From: Eledone cirrhosa
Lineage: Eukaryota
Direction of reading: 5' to 3'
DNA: 64,000 bases
Assembly (NCBI GenBank): GCA_964016885.1
Contig: OZ024743.1
Span: 281,046,001 to 281,110,000, forward strand
Positions 7,122-62,615 of the stretch are shown piece by piece. Every line of letters begins with the position of its first letter. The stretch's first letter is position 1. Both the position numbers and the translations under genes were made by a program. The notes under the pieces were generated by a model. It was given only the letters and a program-made list of their open reading frames with translations. It was not told the DNA's origin and did not search any database.

Positions 7122-7522
7122 TTCGGGAGGGTCATATTTGTGTAATATTGCCAGAATTAATAACAGAACACACTCACTGTTTGGTTGGTTTTCGCTTCTC
7201 GCTGTCTTTTATATCTGCGATCTAACTTAATCGGTCCTCAATGTTGCCATTGACTGACCGACGGTCAAAAATAATACAGATACAATATAGACACAAACAC
7301 ATATATATAGTTTACATAATTACATAAATCTTTCGTTGCACATCTGCGACATCGTCAGTGGTGTTATATTTTTTCCTCCTGTTGTGTTGTATATCTACGC
7401 CATTTTTTATTCAGTCTGTGTATATATTTATTTATTTATTTGCTTGTTTGTTTATTTTATTTTGTCTTCTTTGCGCATGCGTTTGCGTGTGTGTACAGTG
7501 TTGTGTGTGCTGTGTCCCCAGT

Positions 7523-7557
<35 letters not shown>

Positions 7558-7609
7558 AAGCATGCATGTAAGTGAAGTTATGCAGGTATATATAAATATA
7601 TATATTATA

Positions 7610-7694
<85 letters not shown>

Positions 7695-7712
7695 ATATAT
7701 ATGTTATGCAGG

Positions 7713-7744
<32 letters not shown>

Positions 7745-7903
7745 CATATATGATATGTATATATATATATAGAATAGAATGAAACGAAATTTCATTTCTC
7801 ACTCTTAGTACGACATTTACTTAAATGCAAGTGTGTATGTATGTATACGTACATACATATATGTATAGAGACGTACAGTAGTATGTATATATATACATAC
7901 ATG

Positions 7904-7958
<55 letters not shown>

Positions 7959-8080
7959 GTATCGGTTTACCGAACATTTATTATAATGCTAGGTTTGTTT
8001 GTTTGTAAACAAACAGCCCGAATTACGCCGTACAGTGTTTAGGCAACCACGTCACCTTTTTGTTCAACACTGACACAGGA

Positions 8081-8123
8081 ACGATGTACAAGTTTCAAGC
8101 TTATTAGCTATCGTCAGCATCGT
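8081..8123 (-). ncRNA. Minimal type-I hammerhead ribozyme (family A)
   Basis: Reverse complement: acgaug-CUGACGA-u-agcu-aaua-agcu-u-GAAA-cuug-UA-caucgu. Confidence 0.75.
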
Positions 8124-8713
8124 ATACCTTCCTGCCAGATGGTTGAACGTCTGAAAGTATATACTTTCCTTATGCATATTAACGGCTGAGCAGCCTAATT
8201 TGCATATCGAGTGAGTTCAGTCGGCCGGGCACACCCAAAACGATAAATGGAATAGAATGAAACGAAATTTCACTTCTCACTCTTAGTATGGCACTTACTT
8301 AAATGCAAGTATGTATGTATGTATACGTACATACATATATGTATGCAGACGTACAGTAGTATGTATATATATACATACATGCACACATATATATATATAT
8401 GCACGTATCGGTTTACCGAACATTTATTATAATGCTCGGTTTGTTTGTTTGTAAACAAATATATATGTGTGCATGTATGTAGATATATACATACTACTGT
8501 ACGTCTGTATACATACATACATACTTGCATTTAAGTAAGTGCCGTACTAAGAGTGGGAAATGAATGAAATTTCGTTTCGTTCTATTCCATTTATCGTTTT
8601 CGTTGTGCCCGGCCGACTAAACTCACTCGATATGCAAATTAGGCTGCTCAGCCGTTAATATTCATAAGGAAAGTATATACTTTCAGACGTTCAACCATCT
8701 GGCAGGAAGGTAT

Positions 8714-8756
8714 ACGATGCTGACGATAGCTAATAAGCTTGAAACTAGTACATCGT
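8714..8756 (+). ncRNA. Minimal type-I hammerhead ribozyme (family A)
   Basis: acgaug-CUGACGA-u-AGCU-aaua-AGCU-u-GAAA-CUAG-UA-caucgu: 6-bp stem I, 4-bp stem II, palindromic minimal stem III, GUA cleavage triplet. Confidence 0.85.
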
Positions 8757-9099
8757 TCCTGTGTCAGTGTTGAACAAAAAGGTGACGTGGTTGCCTAAAC
8801 ACTGTACGGCGTAATTCGGGCTGTTTGTTTGTTTACAAACAAACAAACCGAGCATTATAATAAATGTTCGGTAAACCGATACGTGCATATATATATATGT
8901 GTGCATGTATGTATATATATACATACTACTGTACGTCTCTATACATATATGTATGTACGTATACATACATACATACATACTTGCATATATATATATAAAA
9001 ATATATATATATATACGTGTATTGTATATGTGTGTTTATCCGTACGAATGGACATCTGTACTTATGAATTACGAATATAATGTTCATTATGCTCACACA

Positions 9100-9175
<76 letters not shown>

Positions 9176-9202
9176 GACATATATATATATATATATATAG
9201 AC

Positions 9203-9237
<35 letters not shown>

Positions 9238-9302
9238 CATATATATACATATACATATATATACATATACATATATATACATATACATATACATATATAT
9301 AC

Positions 9303-9379
<77 letters not shown>

Positions 9380-9471
9380 CATACATATATCTATATATAC
9401 ATACATATATATATATATATACATACATATATATATATACATACATATATATATATATACATACATATATA

Positions 9472-13980
<4,509 letters not shown>

Positions 13981-14086: not shown

Positions 14087-16051
<1,965 letters not shown>

Positions 16052-44810: not shown

Positions 44811-44922
44811 AATTACTTCTACAGAACTAGAACTGTTTCATTCCTAAGAAATCATCAGGAAAATCCGGACTTTCCTGGTAATTTCTGACGAATAAAACAG
44901 TTCTAGTCCTGTAGAAGTCATT
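44811..44922. repeat. 112-bp imperfect palindrome centred on TCCGGA (MITE-like)
   Basis: aattacttctacagaactagaactgttt...aaacagttctagtcctgtagaagtcatt. Confidence 0.8.
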
Positions 44923-44950
44923 TATATTATAAAATGAATATATATATATA

Positions 44951-45053
44951 TGGAAAAGAATGAAACGAAATTTCATTTTTCACTCTTAGTACGGCTGATA
45001 CCTAAATATAAGTATGTATACGTACATACATATATGTGTACATACAGACGTAC

Positions 45054-45084
<31 letters not shown>

Positions 45085-45528
45085 CATACATACATGCACA
45101 CTTATATATATATATATATGTACGTATGGGTTTACCGAACATTTATTATAATGTTCGGTTTGTTTGTAAACAAACAGCCCGAATTACACCGTACAGTGCT
45201 CGGCAACCATCGTCGCCCTTTTGTTCAACACTGACACAGGAACGTATATACTTTCAAACGTTCAATCATCTGACAGAAAGGTATGCGATGCTGACGATAG
45301 TTAATAAGCTTGAAACTAGTACATCGTTCCTGTGTCAGTGTTGAATAAAAGGGCAACGATGGTTGCCGAGCACTGTACGGCGTAATTCGGGCTGTTTGTT
45401 TACAAACAAACCGAACATTATAATAAATGTTCGGTAAACCCATACGTACATATATATATGTGTGCATGTATGTATAAATATACATACTACTGTACGTCTG
45501 TACACATATATGTATGTACGTATACATA

Positions 45529-45535
<7 letters not shown>
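44951..45535. mobile_element. Family A foldback, copy 2
   Basis: Left arm 44951-45245, right arm 45246-45535, hammerhead at 45286-45326 (+). Confidence 0.9.
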
Positions 45536-46599: not shown

Positions 46600-46907
46600 A
46601 TATTAATAAATGGAAACTATATTTATAAAACCATATTTATTTCATTATACATATTTCAGGGATACCACATTAAATTATGGTGTTGCTTAACACTATGACT
46701 TATTAAAATAATATAAACAATTCACTATCCAGACAGCCTCCAAAAGTAATGGTTGCATTTTAAAAAGGTACGTCAAAGCTATTTGTAAAACTGTTATATA
46801 TTGTATTTTGTCTGATGAAGGCATACCATAATTTAATGTGGTATCCCTGAAATATGTATAATGAAATAAATATGGTTTTATAAATATAGTTTCCATTTAT
46901 TAATAAC
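46600..46907. mobile_element. Family K foldback with hammerhead at 46805-46867 (+)
   Basis: 46602-46682 is the inverse of 46824-46905. auuuugu-CUGAUGA-aggcauacca..ugguaucccu-GAAA-uaugua-UA-augaaau. Confidence 0.85.
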
Positions 46908-50766: not shown

Positions 50767-50827
<61 letters not shown>

Positions 50828-51082
50828 GGAGGTGAGTTTTCTTATAGCACAATAAAGCAATGCAAATATCGGATAAGTACCACTCTTCTTTTAACCATCT
50901 TTTTATCTTATATTATTTATACTCCAGTCCTACAAACTGTAGAGTGCTACTTATCCGATATTTGCATTGCTTTATTGTGCTACAATAAAACTCACCTCCT
51001 ACATTAACTAGCTCCTTAACTGTTTGAGCGCTAACCCTCATATCGGATACCTTTTGATGGTCTTTAATTTTTCTTCTACAAC

Positions 51083-53480
51083 ATGGATTATTACAACATA
51101 ACCACTTCAACTAAAGACATTCCTATACCTGGTAAATCTGAATTCACCAAACTTCTGATTGAAAAATCTGACTCCTTTATGAGAAGGCTTAGATGGATAG
51201 CTTTTTTCCACGACCAGCGCCAAAAAGAAAATTTCTATACTAAGGAACATAACTTTCTTGATCATTTATTTAACTCTAGAAGAAATCCTCCTACCAACAA
51301 AAATCTAGTGCAGTTCGAGGAAAAATTAACTAATATTATAAGAAATCTTAAATTCAAGAGAAACCCTTACAGAGGACAAGAGCACCTTGTAAATCTCAGG
51401 AATACGATTTTAAACCTTAATTCCTCTAAAAATGTCTTAGTCCACTCCGACAAAACTAATCATTTATATGGTGTATCTAGGGATAACTATAATAACCTTA
51501 TCCTTAAGGAACTAAGGAAGAACTATTGTAAAACTAACCATGACAATTTGGAATCTATAAACTTTGAAGCTTCTGAGATTATGGCAAAACTTGGCATTGA
51601 AAAAAGACCGAACCATTCCTCCCAAGAACTCCGAGGATAAATCTCAAGGATCATAAATGTAATTTTCGAACGGAACTACCTGTTAGACTAATCGCCTCCT
51701 CTAAATCAGATCTGGGGGTTGTTAGTAAAGCCATCTTGGATAGAATTATCCCACAGGTTCGTTCTAATTGCTCTATTTCTAACTTAAATTTCTGGTTTGG
51801 TACATCTGAAGTAATTGGCTGGTTCAACAACCTGAATAAGAAAAACAAACAAAAATGTATTCAATTTGATATTGCCAGCTACTATTCTTCTATTTCGCCT
51901 TCACTACTCAACAATGCTCTATCTTTCGCATTTAAATGTTCTGACATCACCACAGATGAACTTCACATCATTCTCACCGCAAGAAAAACCATCTTAGAAT
52001 TCAACAATGAATACTGGACTAGAGCCGATACTTCCAACAACTTTGATATCACAATGGGTGCTTCCGATTCATCGCAATTGACTGATTTGATTGGTATTTT
52101 TATTTTGAATTCTTTAAATCGGAAAATTCCTCAATTTCGCGGTGGATTTTATCGTGACGATGGACTTTTTACTATCTTAAATTGCAATTTAGTTAACCTT
52201 AATATTATTAAGAACAATATACGTGATCTCTTTAAGCAACATAACCTTAAAATTGAATTTGATAACAACGTCAAACTAGCTAACCTCTTGGATATGTCCC
52301 TTAATCTTGACACTGGCCTATATTACCCGTACCATAAAAACAATGAGAATCTAAATTATGTTAATTTTAAATCTAACCACCCCACTAACATTAAAAATGC
52401 TATGGTCAGTAATATTGGAAAAAGAATATCAAACCTATCTAATAAAAAATATCTTCGATGCTAACGCCAATTACTATAATAATGCGCTTTCTAAAGCCGA
52501 TTATCCTGATAAAATTAAATACAGTAAATAAACCAATCCTAGAAGGTCTTACAGTAAAATAATTAATTATGATCATTCCAATAACTTAAATAAAAGACCT
52601 AGATACAAAAATATAATCTTCTATATTGCTCCTTTCTCTATTTCTATTAATAATAATATTCCTAAACTATTCTTTATGGCCTTAGATAAATGCTTCCCTC
52701 CCTCACATATCTATAGTAAAATCTTTAACAAACATACAATAACATTTTCCTATTCCACCTCCTCCAACATCTCTAACATTATCTCTAAACACAACAATAA
52801 AATATTAAATATTAAATCACATCCTTCCAACACTGAGCGTCATAATAATAGCAGTAGTACTCCCGACGTCATTGTTAACTCTAGGCTAGATTCTGCATAC
52901 TCAAATACGACGTCAAATGTAACTTCGTTGAATGTTCATAATACCAATCTAAATCAGGAAACTATTATTCCTATCGTAAATAACTTCTCCAATCCAATTC
53001 CTCCTATAAATAACACTAGGTCACTTGTTAATAACTCTGTTAATTTCTCTAATCGCAATTGTAATTGCCCTGTTAGAACTAAATGTCCTCTCAATAACCA
53101 TTGTCTTGATAAAAACTTAGTCTATGAATGTAAGGTTACCAATTCCTTTACCTATTTCGGTTCCACTTCCACCTCCTTCAAAGCTAGATTTTATAATCAC
53201 AATTCGTCTTTTAAATACCAACTTAAAAGAACTAACACGGCACTCTCATAACCATATGGTCCTTGAAAGCGAAAATATTAACTATAACATCTCTTGGAGA
53301 AAAGTTTGTTCTACTTCTCCCTACTTGAATGCCTCCCTATCCAGAACATGTAATCTTTGCCTAGCTGAGAAATTTACCATTATATCTAATTTCAATTCCA
53401 TAATAAATAGACGCACTGATTTTTTTTTCTCTCTGCTTGCATAAATTCCTCAGAACATTCCATAAAGTATACAGCTAATA
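51083..53480 (+). pseudogene. PLE2 RT + GIY-YIG ORF with frameshifts (~51610, ~52450, ~53250, ~53425) and a TAA stop (~52530)
   Basis: N-terminus STKDIPIP....F...LIEK.DSFMRRLRW.AFF typical of Naiads; SDKT, QFDIASYYSSI, FDITMGASD, FYRDDGL, CNC....CPL...C, LVY..YFG...FKAR..NH.SSF, CNLCLAEK..I. Confidence 0.92.
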
Positions 53481-54622
53481 TCTAATACCTTACTAGTTTA
53501 AAATCCTTTTTCTTAAAAATATACCCATTTTCTACCTTATTTCAATATTATTTATTATATATTATATAATACAAGTTACTCATTCTATATCATTCCTCTT
53601 TATCACTTTCCTTTCTTCCTCTTTTCTTTTTAATTTCTAACCTCTAATCTGTACTTTTTCTTCCTAACTACTTCTCAATTCTTATTATTACTCACCACAA
53701 CATTATCCATTCTTCCATCTTTCCTCATATCATTGGCCATAAAAATTATTATTATTTTTTTAATACATTATAGTATTACCTTTAATAGTCCTTCGTAAAC
53801 ATAAACATTTTTTTTACGTTAGATTTTTCTTCATTAAGTTCCTTATCTCATCCTTTCATGCTCGTTTGACTTTTACATATTACAATACATAAAAACAAAC
53901 TTAAACCCTAACTAATTTCTTTTAATATATTATATTATTACCATTAGAAAATATTTCGTAAACATATATATTTTTTATGTTAGATATTTTCTTCCTTAAA
54001 CATTCTTTTCTTCTTTGCTTTCTGCGCTCATTTTTAAACAAACTATTTACGTACACGTATTACGCACACATATTAAATTACATAAAAACAAACTTAAACA
54101 CTAACTAATTCCTCTAAATTCATAACTCATTCATTCTTCTACTTCTTTTCACATTATATCCTTAATAACATTAATATTTTTATTTTAATAATACATATTA
54201 ATAATTTCTTTTCCTCGCACAAATTATTAATATACAATATACAAACCTTAATTTAATATTATTCTTAATCCCTTTTTCTCTTCATGCATAAACCTCATTA
54301 ACTTTTAATTTCAAATTCTTTTAAATTATCTATTATCTTCCAACGGCTTTTTAACTTCTCTCTGTGAGACAATATTTTTTTTTCTCAGTTGTAAAGACTA
54401 TCTCTCTCTCTCTTTATCACCCATCTCTCCTCCTCTCTCATCCTTCCTCCTTATACTCCTTCCCCACCATTCTTTACTCTCATCTCCTCCTCTTCCTTAC
54501 CTTTTCCAACCCCCCACCTCACTTTTTCCCAATCTCATACATCAATCTTAAATTATTTGTTCATATGTTGATTTAAAACTTCACTATTCACAAGTGTTTT
54601 TTAAGCTTCATATCATGTATCC

Positions 54623-54693
54623 TATTTTATCTGATGAAAACGCAGATATCATTCCATGATGATATTTGTTTTTTAAATGCGCGTAATAAAATA
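54623..54693 (+). ncRNA. PLE2 pLTR hammerhead, probably inactivated (GAAA to UAAA)
   Basis: uauuuuau-CUGAUGA-aaacgcagauauca..ugauauuuguuuuu-UAAA-ugcgcg-UA-auaaaaua. Confidence 0.75.
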
Positions 54694-54802
54694 CTTGGAA
54701 CTCTTTTAACCATCTTTTGATCATATATAATATATATATAAACATATATACATATGTATATATGTATATATATATATATATATATACATATATACATATG
54801 TA

Positions 54803-55765: not shown

Positions 55766-55777
55766 TATACATTTATA

Positions 55778-56790
55778 TAAACGGAAAAAATGAAACGATA
55801 TTTCATTTCCCACTCTTAGTACGGCTGTTACTTAAATATAAGTATGTACACGTACATACATATATGTATACCGACGTACAGTAGTATGTATATATATATA
55901 CATACATGCACACATATATATATGCACGTATGGATTCACCAAACATTTATTATAATGCTCGGTGTGTTTGTAAACAAACATCCCGTATTAAGCCGTAGTG
56001 TCTAGCAACCACTGTTGCTCGTTTGTTCAACACTGACAAAGGAACGCTGTACTAGTTTCAAGCTTGTTAGCTATCGTCAGCAACGTATACCTTCCTGCCA
56101 GATTGTTGAACATATATACTTACCTTATGCATATTAACGGCTGAGTAGCCCAATTTGCATATCGAGTGGGTTAATCGGCCGGGTGCACCGAAAACGATAA
56201 ACGGAAAAAATGAAACGATATTTCATTTCCCACTCTTAGTACGGCTGTTACTTAAATATAAGTATGTACACGTACATACATATATGTATACCGACGTACA
56301 GTAGTATGTATATATATATACATACATGCACACATATATATATATGCACGTATGGATTCACCGAACATTTATTATAACGCTCGGTGTGTTTGTAAACAAA
56401 CATCCCGTTTCATTTTTTCCGTTTATCGTTTTCGGTGCACCCGGCCGATTAACCCACTCGATATGCAAATTGGGCTACTCAGCCGTTAATATGCATAAGG
56501 TAAGTATATATGTTCAACAATCTGGCAGGAAGGTATACGTTGCTGACGATAGCTAACAAGCTTGAAACTAGTACAGCGTTCCTTTGTCAGTGTTGAACAA
56601 ACGAGCAACGGTGGTTGCTAGACACTACGGCTAAATACGGGATGTTTGTTTACAAACACACCGAGCATTATAATAAATGTTCGGTGAATCCATACGTGCA
56701 TATATATATGTGTGCATGTATGTATATATATATATACATACTACTGTACGTCGGTATACATATATGTATGTACGTGTACATACTTATACA
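55778..56790. mobile_element. Family A foldback, copy 3 (420-bp monomer)
   Basis: acggaaaaaatgaaacg at 55781 and 56201. Inversion junction ~56405 with CGT microhomology. Hammerheads at ~56044-56086 (-) and 56537-56579 (+). Confidence 0.92.
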
Positions 56791-57119
56791 TTTATATATA
56801 TATCTATATATGTATATATATATACATATATATACATCTATATATATATAGAGAGAGAGATAGAGAGAGAATTGTATAAGTATGTATATGTATATAAATA
56901 TATTATGTGTGTATGTGTATGAGGGGCTTGTTATGTCCCTGGAGAGGTTAAAGATTAAATCCGATATAATTTCTGTTATTTCTTTCTCTGTGTAACAAGT
57001 TGTTTATTTACTTCGCATGCAAACTGACGGAGGTTCAATCGATCAACCTTGCAGACGATAACCGAGTACCAATCCGATCTTTACGTCCAATTCACTAATG
57101 TGGTAGTTCCGGGGTGGAG

Positions 57120-61349: not shown

Positions 61350-62615
61350 CCGATCACGTCCATATACGATAACCTCCACCTCATGGACAGACGGACAGAA
61401 ATCCTTCGCTTGGCAGTGCTACTGAGAGGCACTGCCGGTTCGAGATAAACTCTACAGGCACAGAAGTGTGGTCAGACGGACCTGTCTGAGCTACGAAACT
61501 GTTCTGTACGCACTCCTCCTGTGTCCGAGTATTACTGACTTGTGGAAGTATGTCGAACAGCTGTTATCACGTGTGGGACAGATCCGGCTATCGATCGAGT
61601 CCATCATGAAGATCGACTCACCGCCTTCTTTTATCTAGGAAGAGCAGACAGTTTTCCTCTACCTGGTGGCTGTAGCCACAGAGGTTGTCTGGTGGACGAG
61701 GTTGAAAGGACGGAAGACTGACACTTTTCTCTTCCATCACCAATTTTTCAAGTTTCATTTGGAAAGGAAGGTGAGGGGGAAGAAGGATGTGCTGCTCCTC
61801 TGTACATTTGCTAAAAGGTGGGGGAATGTTGCGATTTGGAGTGGAGAGGGTGAATGTGGCTGATTTAGAGTGGAGAGGGTGAATGTTGCTGATTTGGAGT
61901 GGAGAGGGTGAATGTTGCGATTTGGAGTGGAGAGGGTGAATGTGGCTGATTTAGAGTGGAGAGGGTGAATGTTGCTGATTTGGAGTGGAGAGGGTGAATG
62001 TTGCGATTTGGAGTGGAGAGGGTGAATGTGGCTGATTTGGAGTGGAGAGGGTGAATGTTGCGATTTGGAGTGGAGAGGGTGAATGTTGCTGATTTGGAGT
62101 GGAGAGGGTGAATGTGGCTGATTTGGAGTGGAGAGGGTGAATGTTGCGATTTGGAGTGGAGAGGGTGAATGTGGCTGATTTGGAGTGGAGAGGGTTAATG
62201 TTGCGATTTGGAGTGGAGAGGGTGAATGTTGCGATTTGGAGTGGAGAGGGTTAAATTCGCTGATTTGGAGTGGAGAGGGTTAATGTTGCTGATTTGGAGT
62301 GGAGAGGGTGAATGTTGCGATTTGGAGTGGAGAGGGTTAAATTCGCTGATTTGGAGTGGAGAGGGTTAATGTTGCTGATTCGGGGTGGAGAGGGCACCCT
62401 ACTCGCCTGTTCTTGAAGCGCCGGGTGTTTCAGGATTGGTCGGGTCCTTGAGTCGCCCCTGGATGGTTCTTCCCACCACCCCTATTGGAGAATTTGTATT
62501 GTTATAATGTTATTGCTTTTTATATTGTTTACTCGATTTTTCTGTAAATCCCCCACTGTCTCTGTTTTTGTATTACTCGCAATATGTCGGCCCTTGTGGC
62601 CAATAAAGAAATCAT
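61350..62615 (+). mobile_element. L1/Tx1-like LINE 3' remnant
   Basis: RSIYDNLHLM (RT piece); W....ALPVRDKL....C...ETVLYALLLCP....LW (C-terminal cysteine-rich domain); 3' UTR with AATAAA. Confidence 0.75.
61825..62395. repeat. 28/29-bp minisatellite (gaatgttgc[t]gatttggagtggagagggt), ~20 units
   Basis: Directly visible, inside the LINE remnant. Confidence 0.95.

Follow-up and report, generated by a model that had tools for sequence, protein, structure and literature searches.

Non-LTR retrozymes have been described in coral, mussel and axolotl (PMC7229834; bioRxiv 10.64898/2026.07.22.740005) as metazoan repeats that lack an open reading frame (ORF) and carry one type I hammerhead ribozyme. 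In the sections of these papers covered here they occur as tandem copies, in high copy number and together with Penelope-like elements (PLEs), their predicted circle is strongly self-paired and their circular RNAs have been demonstrated; the same sections describe the tandem repeats and leave the insertion ends unmapped. The axolotl ribozyme HHR_Amex1 has a one-pair stem III with a palindromic loop and cuts better as a dimer. Copying of more than one unit from a circular template has already been put forward as a hypothesis, in the parts covered of PMC4209133 and PMC7229834.

Two PLE systems are close in other respects. The Anolis Poseidon PLE PAc, in the covered part of PMC11167929, codes for its own enzyme, a predicted dimer, and uses two adjacent internal reverse transcription (RT) start sites that define a tail of 30–40 nt; both strands of an AT-rich target are cut and extended, a hammerhead lies upstream of the start sites, and in vitro there is neither a difference between the strands in start site nor homology to the target. 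Hydra-clade PLEs are marked by RWK, DKT, a CxCX5C linker, CxxC, CxH and (TA)n insertion, and show hammerheads, partial tandems, an inverted 5′-truncated copy and a tail that is often at one end only (PMC8557442, sections covered). The route by which tandem and inverted PLE insertions arise, the purpose of the hammerhead and the enzyme that mobilises animal retrozymes are all stated as open in the covered parts of PMC8557442, PMC11167929 and bioRxiv 10.64898/2026.07.22.740005.

The repeat analysed here, family A, was found in a window of 64,000 nucleotides of Eledone cirrhosa DNA, by which we mean the whole stretch analysed. It has the characters of the metazoan retrozymes listed above, including the PLE co-occurrence, and the stem III and palindromic loop of HHR_Amex1, whereas most of its copies are dispersed arms of 0.1–3 units, often paired head to head, which have PLE tails, lie in TA targets and show no visible duplication of the target; its circle, unlike theirs, is a predicted one. 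With PAc it shares the adjacent start sites, the cut and extended AT-rich target, the upstream hammerhead and the predicted dimer, but it is ORF-less, its tail is 57–58 nt long (76 nt in the sister family A2), each arm uses one site, and both sites end in UUUA or UUAU, matching the TA target. The (TA)n targeting, hammerheads, partial tandems, inverted 5′-truncated copy and frequently one-sided tail of Hydra-clade PLEs recur in family A, and the protein motifs of the clade are carried by autonomous elements of this genome; family A itself has no ORF, and there is no detectable pseudo-LTR sequence in common with the Hydra families sampled.

The retrozyme class itself is already known, and the anatomy is a new variant. 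Three points seem to be new: that mapping links a retrozyme to PLE two-site initiation, that autonomous as well as non-autonomous families follow an almost strict rule of one site per arm, and that both arms of an insert have a haplotype in common. Neither the pairing rule in quantified form, nor the retrozyme/two-site link, nor the shared arm haplotype was found in the literature searched, outside which lay subscription papers and one supplement.

Copies of family A in the window

Phases were counted on a natural 445-nt unit of locus L002 bounded by two successive predicted cut sites, position 1 being the first base 3′ of GUA, and arms were placed with a wrap-around aligner. Window positions 7765-8987 (copy 1) comprise two head-to-head arms flanked by TA tracts, and two further copies lie downstream:

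7525..7770, no strand: left (TA)n target tract, interrupted
7765..8459, minus: copy 1 left arm, 1.48 units, from phase 77 (5′ end) round to ~289 (site D) in (TA)n
7765..7821, minus: tail between the proximal (P) and distal (D) 3′-end sites, 57 nt
8082..8122, minus: left-arm type I hammerhead, predicted cut between 8087 and 8086
8459..8460, no strand: head-to-head junction of both 5′ ends, without foreign insert
8460..8987 (end ~8985-8987), plus: copy 1 right arm, 1.20 units, from phase 137 to ~230 (site P) in (TA)n
8715..8755, plus: right-arm type I hammerhead, predicted cut at 8750, after GUA
8986..9510, no strand: right (TA)n-rich target tract, interrupted
44946..45243, minus: copy 2 left arm, 0.64 unit, D end, 5′ end at phase 5
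45244..45529, plus: copy 2 right arm, 0.66 unit, P end, hammerhead 45291-45321
55777..56405, minus: copy 3 left arm, 1.48 units of the 420-nt subfamily, D end, hammerhead 56050-56080
56406..56794, plus: copy 3 right arm, 0.92 unit, P end, hammerhead 56543-56573

The initial annotation gave the copy 1 arms as ~1.4 and ~1.2 monomers, close to the 1.48 and 1.20 units measured here, and as starting at different phases, which are 77 and 137. By wrap-around alignment, each of these arms crosses the cut site once. The more general statement, that arms of the family exceed one monomer and read through the cleavage site, holds for copy 1 but does not extend to copy 2 (0.64 and 0.66) or to the right arm of copy 3 (0.92); the left arm of copy 2 has no crossing because its 5′ end, at phase 5, adjoins the cut site. 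A period of 420 bp is exact for copy 3, whereas the unit of copy 1 is ~445 nt and subfamilies range from 420 to ~540 nt. The left arm of copy 1 has a period of 478 bp owing to a TA expansion near 7910-7955.

One hammerhead motif is seen in each unit, as had been proposed. That of the copy 1 right arm is made up of stem I CGAUG/CAUCG, CUGACGA, stem II AGCU/AGCU, GAAA and CUAG, and contains the palindrome ACUAGU; in the left arm the stem III variant is CUUG and the palindrome is broken, so that in copy 1 the palindromic stem III previously noted applies to the right arm only. PLE hammerheads reportedly cleave as dimers. An Rfam search of the window gave nothing at gathering score. The repeats had been said to contain no ORF, and indeed the longest stop-to-stop frames over the window copies are low-complexity TA readings or short frames, none of those overlapping the copies being matched in a PLE protein comparison.

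All three window copies end at one P and one D site, and in copy 1 the P–D tail is found at the outer end of the left arm only. Hammerhead-like motifs of other repeat families lie at 44824-44858 (minus), 46812-46860 (plus) and 7321-7358 (minus), and an arm of a separate small hammerhead family, at 14190-14373 (minus) and 15183-15265 (plus), ends in (TC)n(TA)n. Repeat families whose stem III loop is palindromic are numerous in the window and the other loci, and self-comparison shows a short-period tandem repeat at 61820-62394.

Family A genome-wide and its fixed 3′ ends

In the 3.0-Gb genome an exact 40-mer has 1,810 matches and a degenerate 31-mer 24,270, giving at least 24,270 family A hammerhead copies. 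A 45-mer of the young subfamily matches exactly 8,261 times and a looser pattern that includes A2 30,924 times; reversed control patterns gave 0 matches. A2 has a unit of 471 nt, ~65% alike to A over the aligned parts, and can be aligned with it round most of the unit. It is found at L165 5800-7000 and in L286-L315, where it is young and likewise shows head-to-head arms with two end sites.

The type I hammerhead has a stem III of a single pair; its core and three stems are present. All 70 cells pair across 7 natural hammerhead sequences and 5/10 pairs are changed on both sides; most of these two-sided changes come from A2 and the structure was drawn from the same sequences, which means that the shuffle control should not be read as a probability. 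The stems covary across the subfamilies and A2 although A and A2 are so far diverged. The minimum free energy fold of the hammerhead 49-mer differs from the active fold, and circular folding of the unit gives z from −9 to −13 (25 shuffles), a value to which we attach little weight because TA-rich palindromes inflate it. In the young subfamily the cut site is crossed twice or more in 25/52 arms, as against the one hammerhead per arm of copy 1, and arms reach 14.95 consecutive units without an ORF insert. The data thus support a self-contained, ORF-less unit with a predicted type I hammerhead that appears to have been copied for more than one lap. Family A has the genomic characters of a non-LTR retrozyme, its self-cleavage and circular RNA being predictions; since the unit has no RT + GIY-YIG ORF, it is not filed as an autonomous PLE.

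Mapping of the arm ends onto the unit, which the initial annotation had suggested, shows 5′ ends spread over the phases and 3′ ends concentrated at two sites. The latter were collected from 115 loci (120 fetched, 5 duplicates dropped), and 168/198 arms end within phases 205-236 (P) or 276-289 (D), windows that were chosen after inspection of the data and together make up 46/445 phases; the P window is a low-complexity stretch. The informative feature is the fixed 3′ ends rather than the differing starts. A (TA)4 lies within 24 nt of the 3′ end for 134/167 old, 48/49 young and 35/40 A2 ends, against a background of 0.148.

Arms were taken as pairs where the gap between them was at most 70. Among the classifiable head-to-head inserts 73/76 pair one P with one D end. 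In the old set, reduced to 114 loci by the further removal of an edge-cut array, the 66 head-to-head pairs comprise 40 P+D, 2 P+P, 1 D+D and 23 in which one or both ends lie elsewhere, so that P+D accounts for 40/43 classifiable inserts. In the young set (30 loci) the rule holds for 16/18 pairs, the other 2 each having an end outside the two sites (16/16 classifiable), and in A2 (23 loci) 17/17 pairs follow the rule. Paired arms are joined with a gap of at most 10 bases in 17/18 young and 17/18 A2 cases. In the old set, microhomology at the junction does not exceed chance (mean 0.9, with 0.76 expected, n = 24); it is modest in the young set (3.1, n = 13, including one value of 16) and A2 (1.8, n = 12). 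Arm length has no consistent bias with end type, the D arm being the longer in 17/40 old, 11/16 young and 15/17 A2 pairs. Family A shows the PLE-type marks of 5′ truncation, partial tandems, an inverted 5′ copy and a tail at one end, and we consider it very probable that it is copied from two sites in the manner of PLEs.

Directly after 8 D ends at phase 282 there is a (TC)n run (L004, L024, L027, L041, L043, L072 and L098, with L072 having it at both ends), and after 4 P ends at phase 223-228 a (CA)n run (L015, L017, L018, L090). These runs echo the last two bases of the arm and possibly reflect slippage at initiation as in telomerase, unless the targets were compound microsatellites. In contigs X1-X6, which are of unclear kind, may include the source sample and have no bearing on expression, loose ends run into TA at the D site and also near the P site.

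Penelope-like elements and the search for a parent

The genome contains a young autonomous PLE with an open frame of 785 codons, more than 100 copies of which are identical over the 195 aa searched; it lies intact at L266 2680-4998 and in L236-L285. Its 773-aa protein carries RWK, DKT, CxCX5C, CxxC and CxH, as read by eye, and the element answers the Hydra-clade description by these predicted motifs and its TA ends rather than by a tree. Sequence searches of Pfam and PDB with the PLE proteins gave no match. It has two 3′ ends 118 nt apart and forms tandem units of ~3.55 kb (3.6-kb element). Hand counts give P+D pairing in 8/8 inserts of this element that show both ends (20 regions) and in 10/10 inserts of a second PLE family, W2. 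Divergence between the pseudo-LTRs of the 773-aa element is 1.2 within an arm, 1.6 between arms and 5.5 between loci, in events per 500 nt.

W2 has at least 2,569 candidates, the best 40 being 98–99% alike. Its copy in the window (50818-54738) is a frameshifted Hydra-type PLE with a short inverted arm, P+D ends and its own hammerhead-like motif near 54633. A 5′-truncated Hydra-type PLE ORF with 526 codons open lies at 12399-13976 (minus).

As autonomous PLEs share the P+D anatomy, arms of more than one unit that cross the hammerhead are ordinary PLE anatomy, and, as Hydra-clade PLEs obey the same rule, family A is an ORF-less unit with the pseudo-LTRs, tails and inversions typical of PLEs. The earlier proposal, that the arms derive from a circle or a tandem multimer, names the appropriate alternatives: the copying of an ORF-less type I hammerhead unit for more than one lap is supported, and the sequence variants considered below lean towards a circle. 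The shared anatomy also bears on the idea that family A behaves like a satellite, dispersed and inverted through DNA recombination with no part for reverse transcription. Long arrays do contain higher-order repeats and local duplications, and L176 is a duplicated two-arm insert, but this idea leaves unexplained the two fixed 3′ ends in TA runs, the scattered 5′ ends and the P+D pairing, as well as the identical anatomy of PLEs that code for an RT; we give it hardly any credence. Recombination as the main route is refuted by the pattern of ends and remains a secondary process.

The unit might instead be the long pseudo-LTR of an ORF-bearing PLE outside the sample, the arms being truncated copies. 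Many Xenopus retrozyme families match PLE pseudo-LTRs (bioRxiv 10.64898/2026.07.22.740005, part covered), and the sample here covers just a few hundred copies out of more than 24,000. Of 398 loci, many of them overlapping, 323 have an A or A2 hammerhead and 41 of these also a PLE ORF match, which lies upstream on the same strand in 9. Seven of these 9 are neighbours (lying in common TA tracts), nested copies or a chimera, 4 judged by sequence and 3 by arm maps, and lack an ORF–3′UTR–unit arrangement. The initial annotation had named constant attachment to a PLE ORF, with no RNA of monomer length, as the observation that would count against a self-contained unit, and no ORF-bearing parent was found in this sample of ~1% of copies. 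Together with the runs of 14.95 units without an ORF and the alignment of A with A2 round most of the unit, this makes the pseudo-LTR origin very improbable.

The enzyme that copies family A probably belongs to the Hydra clade, as its candidate helper. Sequence does not name the helper, because none of the PLEs sampled has a pseudo-LTR homologous to A: a search by protein, in which 150 of 24,354 candidates were scored, and comparison of the pseudo-LTRs of PLE families B, Y and W2 with A and A2 revealed no homology of this kind. At L206 a W2 arm with a D end is joined to an arm that has a PLE ORF at its 5′ part and a family A 3′ part with a P end; the pairing fits P+D, and the locus would fit a template switch during co-mobilisation. 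The other A/PLE chimera, L025, is D+D, against the rule.

Circular and linear templates

Units of one insert are more alike than units of different inserts. Units of the young subfamily differ by 0.23% inside one arm, by 0.36% from arm to arm and by 1.23% from locus to locus; the corresponding values are 0.84%, 0.67% and 1.35% in A2 and 4.8%, 4.8% and 6.8% in the old set. A hairpin haplotype is common to both arms in 14/16 two-arm young inserts (chance 0.094), with 18 haplotypes among 29 young loci, and L216 has 6.56 + 2.75 near-identical units; young arms in L166, L217 and L218 are not uniform. The exact junction 10-mer is present in 320/341 crossings (109/112 young, 51/52 A2) and 5′ ends fall at the cut site in 4/292 cases against 8.3 expected if uniform, but as the loci were mostly found with patterns spanning the cut site, crossing rates are inflated and the 5′-end count is biased.

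The end-to-end jumping known of the R2 RT shows how a ribozyme-cut linear monomer could yield such arms, the enzyme passing from the 5′ end to the 3′ end of the same or another molecule. The left arm of copy 2, ending at phase 5, is what such a template would leave, and a precise jump within one molecule would look identical to a circle in these data. The scarcity of 5′ ends at the cut site and the exactness of the junctions speak against it, and the haplotype shared by the laps of one insert against jumps between molecules. The shared haplotype and the lack of a pile-up of 5′ ends at the cut site thus favour one circular template over a cleaved linear monomer, which we regard as improbable.

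It is harder to tell a circle from a linear multimer that is transcribed from homogeneous young arrays and copied uncleaved by a PLE from two sites, with the ribozyme acting elsewhere in the cycle or rarely; the two would leave very similar patterns. In vitro the anole PLE works mainly on uncleaved RNA, and its insertion is unaffected by ribozyme mutants (PMC11167929, part covered). Homogeneous young arrays of 9 to 15 units could be sources, a dead-core array exists, and L124 resembles a read-through template. On the other hand, to yield 18 haplotypes in 29 young loci many source arrays would have to have been homogenised independently, the short junction gaps mean that source flanks are rarely captured, and in a linear lineage the number of units would only fall unless DNA duplication restored it. 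We consider the multimer rather unlikely and incline to a template that is circular or functionally circular. On the genomic evidence taken together, we think it likely that family A is a non-LTR retrozyme and that a Penelope-like enzyme of the Hydra clade copies it from a monomer RNA that is probably circular.

The route would then run as follows. A genomic copy of more than one unit would be transcribed, the hammerheads would cut, perhaps as dimers, and the monomer would be ligated to a circle. The RT-endonuclease, likely a dimer, would nick both strands of a TA run, as suggested by in vitro work on another PLE (PMC11167929, part covered). The genomic pattern shows that the copy on one strand starts at P and that on the other at D, 57 nt further 3′. 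Both copies would follow the same RNA circle across the ligated cut site, stop at scattered places and be joined 5′ end to 5′ end. DNA duplication later expands some arrays.

It is possible, and we put it forward tentatively, that a single RT dimer holds one circular RNA at the two adjacent start sites, with both subunits rolling round it. If true, one mechanism would account for the pseudo-LTRs of PLEs and retrozymes, one-sided tails and inverted 5′ copies, and arrays of alternating live and dead cores like that of L308 would be copies of dimer circles. The one-site-per-arm rule and the shared haplotype constrain the mechanism and allow a bench test of circle against linear template, for which the genome supplies a young family (8,261 45-mer matches), a sister family and a young intact Hydra-clade RT (more than 100 identical pieces); the latter element (773 aa, 118-nt tail) is a candidate for in vitro work.

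Live and C3U cores alternate in L308 with a 923-bp period, which fits the dimer-circle prediction. A genome-wide search for C3 variants of the young subfamily gave 68 matches, with 0 pairs at dimer spacing and 4 at monomer spacing; in the first 30 of these loci the variant is never in all hammerheads of an insert, and a loop control (17 hits) behaves likewise. In L393 the alternation of live and dead cores is irregular, as from local duplication.

Higher-order repeats of 6 and 9 units are seen in an array exceeding 42 units, most of whose units, like its partner arm, carry a dead core (C3A). Such repeats and the irregular sharing of variants point to amplification of long arrays at the DNA level, and many identical laps therefore need not derive from one RT run. 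The family A array at L163-L162-L130 (G000 C1 70.056-70.077 Mb), of ~49 units with higher-order repeats and mostly dead cores, is a satellite forming from a retrozyme insert. At L124 3800-6870 both arms of a PLE-fragment insert have an identical junction to antisense family A; the locus may be a chimeric template or an inverted duplication, and could represent a linear read-through template.
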